Counted from the stretch's first letter, positions 48,032 to 48,460 are shown. The stretch is DNA of 64,000 nucleotides from Escherichia coli (GCF_003334405.1 NZ_QOWM01000005.1); one strand, 5' to 3'. Program-made: numbers and translations. Notes: generated by a model not told the origin, from the sequence alone.

Positions 48032-48314
48032 TGCTATCAATTTCCTGCCTGTTTATACCCGGCCATTGCAAGGTGAAAACCCTGGGTACCGACGTCTTTA
48101 GATAAATCTTACGGTATAAATAGCACTTTTGCCTGATTTGAAATTGATACCTTTCTAATCGTCACCTGGATGAAAATAATTCATTGATATTCAAAATTAA
48201 TTTCCTACAGGAATGCAGAGGCGGCGGGAAGATATGCCCTTAATGCCACTGAAAAACCACATAATCTGTACAGCAATAAAAGTCACGGCCTAATATGGCT
48301 AACAAACAATCAAT

Positions 48315-48330
48315 TGTGATATAGTTCACA
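48315..48330. promoter_or_regulatory. Perfect CRP-type site TGTGA-N6-TCACA in the pdeC/yjcB divergent intergenic region
   Basis: ttgtgatatagttcacaa read directly at 48314-48331; assignment to CRP is by consensus match only. Confidence 0.5.
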
Positions 48331-48460
48331 AAATTAATGAAACAAACAGAGTGTTTCATTTTTGTGTTCTGCAAGCCCCGCGATAGCCAGAGTGTACCAC
48401 GCCTCCCGTGAACAACGCCGCGCTGTCCAGGGCATCGGCTCTTTTCAGAGGAATTGTTTG

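Follow-up and report, generated by a model that had tools for sequence, protein, structure and literature searches.

The sequence analysed here is a 64-kb stretch of Escherichia coli DNA (the window), in which the part of interest corresponds to the E. coli region soxR-soxS-pdeC/yjcB-ssb-uvrA. The SoxR (45569-46033, minus strand) and SoxS (46119-46442, plus strand) open reading frames are followed by the pdeC (yjcC) coding sequence on the minus strand (46445-48031, ATG at 48031) and by its divergent neighbour yjcB on the plus strand (48461-48742, ATG at 48461), which encodes a small inner-membrane protein of 93 amino acids and for which NCBIfam holds no YjcB family; the Ssb and UvrA reading frames are also close by. 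The divergent intergenic region separating pdeC from yjcB (48032-48460) is 429 bp long and is present in 5,426 of 5,426 complete E. coli genomes, in many of them with 100% identity. In K-12 MG1655, yjcB occupies 4274760-4275041(-) and pdeC 4275471-4277057(+), the K-12 coordinate being 4323502 minus the window coordinate.

A permissive Rfam search of 45000-50000 left the intergenic region empty, and its sole real match was the Hfq-binding small RNA sraL/RyjA at 45436-45576 (+), a known gene (K-12 annotation ryjA) that was recovered at full length (153 bits, E = 9e-36) and overlaps the soxR 3′ end. A match to Phe_leader at 48688-48777 (+), which spans the end of yjcB and the following terminator, stayed below threshold (27.7 bits, the gathering score being 55; E = 0.15) and most probably arose by chance, through the terminator hairpin. 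That terminator, in the gap between yjcB and ssb (48748-48772), is strong and bidirectional, with a 10-bp stem containing six G-C pairs, and Term-seq 3′ ends at K-12 4274757/8(+) fall on it. The same gap has been described as integration hotspot 39, an insertion place of defence islands (ISME J 2024). In about ten of the orthologous loci considered below the 3 kb that follow yjcB contain no ssb, suggesting that DNA has been inserted in the gap. One contig, NZ_JAUFQN010000013.1, is labelled Flavobacterium paronense and carries pdeC-yjcB-ssb-uvrA, with yjcB and the sequence upstream of it 100% identical to E. coli; contamination of that assembly with E. coli is almost certain.

The intergenic region contains the sequence TGTGAtatagtTCACA (48315-48330, given without strand), that is TGTGA (48315-48319) and TCACA (48326-48330) on either side of the spacer tatagt (48320-48325). 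As the original prediction had pointed out, both CRP half-sites are exact, and all 10/10 positions of the core consensus TGTGA-N6-TCACA are matched; the flanks fit the 22-bp extended CRP consensus more poorly. This is the one perfect core in the 64-kb window, where 0.05 would be expected and where 5/100 shuffles contain one, and cores with up to two mismatches are at chance level (26 against 23.7 expected). Uniqueness in the window is by itself only suggestive, and it is the conservation of the site, described below, that lifts it beyond chance. The CRP SELEX data to which the original prediction had pointed do contain the box: in the genomic SELEX-chip performed with purified cAMP-CRP, Table S3 has a row yjcB<>yjcC with the box TGTGAACTATATCACA (Shimada et al. 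2011), which is the reverse complement of 48315-48330. The database column of that row is empty, so that yjcB<>yjcC was a new target in 2011. PhyloScan (2007) had placed yjcB between 2nd and 16th among its predicted CRP sites, according to the variant used. We found no in vivo CRP occupancy of the box: none of the main texts searched ties yjcB/yjcC to CRP ChIP, and none of them prints the box sequence. The box is a genuine, functional and already catalogued cAMP-CRP binding site.

The position of the box relative to yjcB is defined by a primary transcription start at 48333 (+), equivalent to K-12 4275169(-), which was mapped by Cappable-seq in MG1655 (GSE215300, re-analysed in PMC12987492) and rises above the detection threshold only in antibiotic-treated samples. 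The start lies 8 nt past the hexamer TATAGT (48320-48325), which is the spacer of the CRP box itself, and the TG at 48317-48318 that makes this hexamer an extended -10 (TGaTATAGT, 48317-48325, +) belongs to the left half-site. The box thus spans -18 to -3 of the yjcB promoter, with its centre at -10.5. The same hexamer was used in the yjcB promoter proposed from RpoD-holoenzyme SELEX, CTAACA-15-TATAGT (Shimada et al. 2014, PMC3946193). The -35 region (48295-48304, +) is weak, and its hexamer may be either TGGCTA (18-bp spacer) or CTAACA (15-bp spacer); the flank CTGGCgAAtAAA found there is conserved, and a promoter consensus scan did not call the yjcB promoter, its -35 being poor. Further upstream, at -60 to -46, lies the marbox gcaataaaagtcacg (48273-48287, given without strand), which matches its consensus only moderately and was occupied by MarA in ChIP-seq, in a study that also names yjcB as a target of SoxS by ChIP-exo (PMC5684230, Table 1 and Discussion). 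The resulting yjcB 5′ UTR (48333-48460, +) has 128 nt, with a conserved element at about 48378-48437 and the Shine-Dalgarno sequence AGAGGA. Two other promoter readings were tried and rejected, namely a class II promoter downstream of the box, for which neither of the two groups of loci distinguished below has a conserved -10 at the right spacing, and a sigma-54 reading of the conserved CTGGC flank, where the GC element is absent at the needed spacing.

The expression data indicate the direction of the CRP effect. In a W3110 crp deletion yjcB was up at both pH 7.5 and pH 5.5 by RNA-seq and qPCR, and it appears in both of the "crp deletion up" lists obtained by RNA-seq; at pH 5.5 it reached 474 TPM in the deletion against 155.5 (log2FC 1.61, q = 8e-6). 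The increase is a modest one of about 3-fold, obtained in glucose medium, and may be partly indirect. A site centred at -10.5, together with a transcript that rises when CRP is removed, implies that CRP acts there as a repressor, and the box most likely turns yjcB off. The cAMP-CRP control suggested in the original prediction therefore holds for yjcB, given the SELEX binding, the conservation in 37/37 loci and the crp-dependent expression, but as repression.

A classical activating role of the box, of class I or class II, at pdeC and/or yjcB would agree with its perfect half-sites, with its place in a divergent intergenic region and with the listing of both flanking genes as candidates in Shimada's table. 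For yjcB, however, the centre at -10.5 is not one of the activating positions (such as -41.5, -61.5 or -71.5), and the loss of CRP sends the gene up and not down. For pdeC, the box is 291 bp upstream of the ATG, and the proximal promoter that has been proposed for the gene, TTTTCA-16-TATAAA (48052-48079, minus strand; PMC3946193), is some 250-270 bp away from it. A minus-strand pdeC promoter nearer to the box was looked for, and no plausible one was found at class I or class II spacing; the only -10-like hexamers close to the class II distance are of poor quality, and one of them depends on a K-12-specific base. In the crp-deletion RNA-seq, moreover, pdeC is present in "rpoS deletion down" lists only and in none of the crp lists.

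The distribution of the two genes among relatives points the same way. By tblastn, soxS lies immediately upstream of yjcB and pdeC is absent in Escherichia sp. MOD1-EC7003, Intestinirhabdus, Tenebrionibacter and five Erwinia-type loci, and in all eight of these loci soxS and yjcB have the same orientation. In Serratia, a tblastn search with the window proteins found both soxRS and pdeC missing upstream of yjcB, and Kosakonia, Phytobacter and Atlantibacter had no more than a pdeC-like C-terminal fragment, located more than 2 kb off. Since yjcB keeps the box where pdeC is absent or separated, the box belongs to yjcB. Control of pdeC by CRP from this site, the other half of the original prediction, is not supported, and a classical activating role of the box at either gene appears highly improbable. 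The linkage of soxRS to yjcB is older and more widespread than the pairing of pdeC with yjcB, and it fits yjcB as a target of SoxS/MarA.

Orthologous loci were fetched by means of the YjcB protein (n = 37) from Escherichia, Citrobacter, Intestinirhabdus, Kosakonia, Phytobacter, Yokenella, Leclercia, Atlantibacter, Tenebrionibacter, Erwinia and Serratia. A TGTGA-N6-TCACA core with no more than one mismatch was present 64-148 bp upstream of yjcB in 37/37 loci, the chance of such a core being about 0.012 per random 400-bp stretch by our own arithmetic. In 27 Enterobacteriaceae sequences the whole 16-mer is kept, spacer included; the only spacer variants are TACAGT (twice) and TAGAGT (once), and all of them retain T1, A2 and T6, which are the positions of most weight for a -10. 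In the 10 loci of Erwinia, Serratia and their relatives the spacer is free (CGCCG, CCGTCA, CGCAGA and others), which indicates that TATAGT is not needed by CRP itself. The left flank in those loci reads gaTGaTATAAT or gaTGcTACAAT, a predicted extended -10 adjoining the box, its final base doubling as the first T of the CRP box. Such a -10 abuts the left half-site and predicts a start inside the box, the Erwinia and Serratia starts being predicted and not mapped. The -10 registers of the two layouts are about 10 bp apart, and judging from these alignments it is the overlap of the CRP box with the core promoter, rather than the exact register, that appears to be kept in both. Within E. coli, box, marbox and -10 are kept in six alleles with identity down to 93.5%, and exact words of at least 28 nt containing the whole box were found in 4,260 (K-12 allele) and 1,038 (B2 allele) of the 5,426 genomes, a small overlap between the two counts being possible.

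Immediately downstream of the box lies an inverted repeat, made up of aatgaaaca (48336-48344), the 7-nt loop aacagag (48345-48351) and tgtttcatt (48352-48360), and followed in the genus Escherichia only by a T-rich tail, tttgtgtt (48361-48368, +). The 9-bp hairpin of the original prediction, with tttgtg at 48361-48366 and about 100 bp before yjcB, is thus present as an inverted repeat, the stem ending 100 bp before the ATG. Given the mapped start at 48333, the repeat would form a 5′-proximal stem-loop at +4 to +28 of the yjcB mRNA (48336-48360, +), with 3 unpaired nt before an AU-rich stem in which 2/9 pairs are G-C. Folded as plus-strand RNA in a 43-nt context it reaches -6.9 kcal/mol (z = -0.82), and the first 34 nt of the transcript give z = -1.55; thermodynamically the hairpin is nothing out of the ordinary.

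The conservation of this hairpin was evaluated on an alignment of the first 42 or so nt after the box in 27 species. Standard pairs fill 84.8% of the cells in the nine proposed pairs, compared with 32-46% in controls with a slid 3′ arm. Only three pairs have changes in both partners, the central pair cannot form in 9/27 species and the hairpin is broken or replaced in about 6/27. The signal is mostly sequence conservation of TG..AAC/GTTTCA; RNAalifold found no consensus helix on this alignment. The mean z of the hairpin against dinucleotide shuffles is -1.5, with 18/27 species below -1, as compared to about -0.2 for two control segments. It is most stable in Kosakonia and Phytobacter (-11.7 kcal/mol), whose stems carry compensating substitutions at some positions, and has almost no stability in Pseudenterobacter; with 5′ ends predicted species by species it lies 0-6 nt from the end in most of them.

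The original prediction had also raised leader attenuation of yjcB. In E. coli the 9-bp stem is indeed followed by TTTTTGTGTT, as in a Rho-independent terminator, and at pH 4.4 the rise in ribosome footprints exceeds that in RNA (log2FC 7.73 vs 5.92), which hints at post-transcriptional control. An intrinsic terminator, however, combines a stable G+C-rich stem with a U-tract; here the stem is weak and has few G-C pairs, and outside Escherichia the U-tract is lost even though the stem is kept. The hairpin was not called in a terminator scan, and no 3′ end within the yjcB leader is given in the Term-seq tables, where just the ssb terminator on the opposite strand appears, which is weak negative evidence because yjcB was poorly expressed in those conditions. 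Nor does the leader show the leader peptide or the alternative anti-terminator of known attenuators. A small reading frame from the ATG in the stem (MKQTECF..., 24 codons) was considered and rejected, as it has no Shine-Dalgarno sequence, and in C. youngae and Yokenella this ATG is followed by TAA, so it starts no conserved reading frame. The z of the hairpin is only -0.8 to -1.5 and there is no consensus helix. The attenuation proposal is not supported, and termination in the yjcB leader is very unlikely.

The repeat ATGAAACA-N7-TGTTTCAT might alternatively be a DNA operator, at which a dimeric regulator bound at +4 to +28 would block transcription. The conservation, which resides chiefly in the sequence itself, with a near-invariant right arm GTTTCAT, and not in compensatory change, would fit such a site, as would the very tight regulation of yjcB, whose induction by acid exceeds 60-fold. 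In Kosakonia, Phytobacter and Atlantibacter, however, the arms change while the hairpin potential stays in place, which agrees better with an RNA structure than with a fixed sequence recognised by a protein. The half-sites are about 15 bp apart, centre to centre, a spacing atypical of helix-turn-helix dimers, and the motif has no second copy in the window; an operator at this place is therefore unlikely.

A further alternative is suggested by the left arm AUGAAAC (48337-48343), which is complementary to 48453-48463 (GUUUGAUG, or GUUUCAUG in Citrobacter), a segment that resembles the right arm. The left arm could then pair with the yjcB start-codon region (GTTTGATG or GTTTCATG) and form a translational switch, the 5′ hairpin holding the start site open, and the translation efficiency of yjcB does seem to climb in acid. 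The duplexes beat shuffles (z -1.9 to -5.2) in E. coli K-12, Escherichia sp. MOD1-EC7003, three C. amalonaticus loci, C. sedlakii, Intestinirhabdus and K. oryzendophytica, but these make up only 8/27 species, the mean z is -0.56, and the pairing is absent in E. albertii, the cryptic Escherichia clades, Atlantibacter and others. The resemblance between the start region and the arm may simply be shared ancestral sequence, and we consider a switch of this kind very unlikely. The hairpin is best read as a weak, moderately conserved 5′ stem-loop of the yjcB mRNA and not as an attenuator.

Other structures and sites were noted around the leader. A longer minus-strand hairpin at 48325-48372 (-), with -11.9 kcal/mol and z = -2.6, was rejected since its extension, which uses the right CRP half-site (CACAAAA/TTTTGTG), is restricted to Escherichia; to our knowledge there is no minus-strand transcript at 48325-48372. 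Further down the leader, the segment 48378-48437 (+), CGATAGCCAGAGTG...CCGCGCTGTCCAGGGCA, is strongly conserved in Escherichia, Citrobacter, Intestinirhabdus and Leclercia and can form nested stems, of which Intestinirhabdus has lost the apical part and kept the outer arms. It was rejected as a structured element, none of its 13 predicted pairs showing a compensatory change. A Dcm site, CCAGG, lies within the conserved leader at 48427-48431, and CCTGG sites occur elsewhere in the intergenic region at 48081-48085 and 48166-48170. In a dcm deletion, yjcB has been reported among the five most significantly up-expressed genes (log2FC +1.13).

The model that we propose is that of a high-affinity cAMP-CRP operator built into the yjcB core promoter, where the spacer TATAGT and the TG of the half-site would together serve as the extended -10. 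Bound CRP would cover -18 to -3 and shut out RNA polymerase, presumably by steric occlusion, and high cAMP would keep yjcB repressed. With its poor -35, the promoter would probably be activated by MarA, SoxS or Rob bound to the marbox (-60 to -46), and yjcB would in this way combine a stress signal (on) with a carbon-status signal (off). Transcription would then carry the inverted repeat into the mRNA, where it would form a stem-loop after the first 3 nt; this may protect the 5′ end against decay and would not terminate transcription. Taken as a whole, with a CRP operator occluding the core promoter, probable activation through the marbox and, with less confidence, a stabilising 5′ stem-loop, this model is in our judgment likely to be right, drawing as it does on the sequence and its conservation, the mapped start, the in vitro CRP binding, the de-repression in the crp deletion and the MarA occupancy.

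Parts of this arrangement have counterparts in known systems. The minority of CRP-repressed promoters with the box over the core promoter includes galP2, cyaA P2, spf and azuC/isrB. The yjcB promoter shares with them the protein, the 16-bp box, the overlap with the -10 and the start, and the rise in expression when CRP is missing. It would differ from the galP2 type in that the -10 hexamer is the palindrome spacer itself, with the extended-10 TG in the left half-site, and in that CRP repression is probably paired with activation of the MarA/SoxS type. Class I and class II promoters such as lac, galP1 and melAB have the same TGTGA-N6-TCACA box bound by cAMP-CRP, but their sites are at -61.5 (or further upstream) or -41.5 and activate, in contrast to the site at -10.5 of yjcB, which is de-repressed without crp. 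According to the CRP SELEX survey, repressor sites overlap promoters or lie downstream of them (Shimada et al. 2011). With the promoters of the mar/sox/rob regulon yjcB has in common the MarA-peak marbox, the SoxS ChIP-exo report and the linkage to soxS in many genera; its marbox, upstream of a weak -35, is a moderate match, and activation of yjcB through it is probable.

At the RNA level, 5′-terminal stem-loops are known to stabilise mRNAs, as in the ompA 5′ UTR. The yjcB stem-loop is likewise 3-4 nt from the 5′ triphosphate end, a position kept in most relatives, but its stem is weak, AU-rich and lost in several species. By analogy with ompA the structure might protect the 5′ end against decay, although we offer this tentatively and put it at somewhat less than an even chance. 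The likeness to Rho-independent terminators and attenuators is confined to the stem followed by a T-run in the E. coli leader, and it is offset by the scarcity of G-C pairs, the unconserved T-run, the lack of a mapped 3′ end and the missing leader peptide or anti-terminator.

The site, the binding of CRP and the effect of crp on yjcB are all already published. What the present analysis adds is, first, the assignment of the box to yjcB and not to the c-di-GMP phosphodiesterase gene pdeC, which removes an unsupported link from cAMP to c-di-GMP. It also adds a testable mechanism, in which CRP would occlude a -10 that is its own spacer, with a probable drive by MarA/SoxS, and an evolutionary footprint in the shifted -10 register of Erwinia and Serratia, together with an interpretation of the hairpin as a stem-loop at the 5′ end of the mRNA. 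Since yjcB is among the most strongly acid- and stress-induced E. coli genes that have no assigned function, a description of its promoter should be useful.

Other SELEX-derived CRP boxes that are perfect or near-perfect were noted at bhsA (TGTGATCCAGATCACA), azuC/isrB (TGTGATACAAATCACA), yedR (TGTGATAAAAGTCACA) and ybiJ (CGTGATACTCATCACA). These are genes for small, little-characterised envelope or membrane proteins that are strongly induced by acid (acid-stress top-20), and bhsA, like yjcB, is up in the crp deletion at pH 7.5. Together with yjcB they may form a CRP-repressed stress sub-regulon. More broadly, the fusion of CRP box and core promoter could be an ancient, selected module of yjcB, in which the -10 has shifted by about one helical turn with occlusion kept, and yjcB could belong to a CRP-repressed set of small, stress-induced envelope or membrane genes with azuC, bhsA, yedR and ybiJ; this wider reading is speculative, and we think it rather less probable than not. 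If it were true, low cAMP would be linked to envelope-stress protection.
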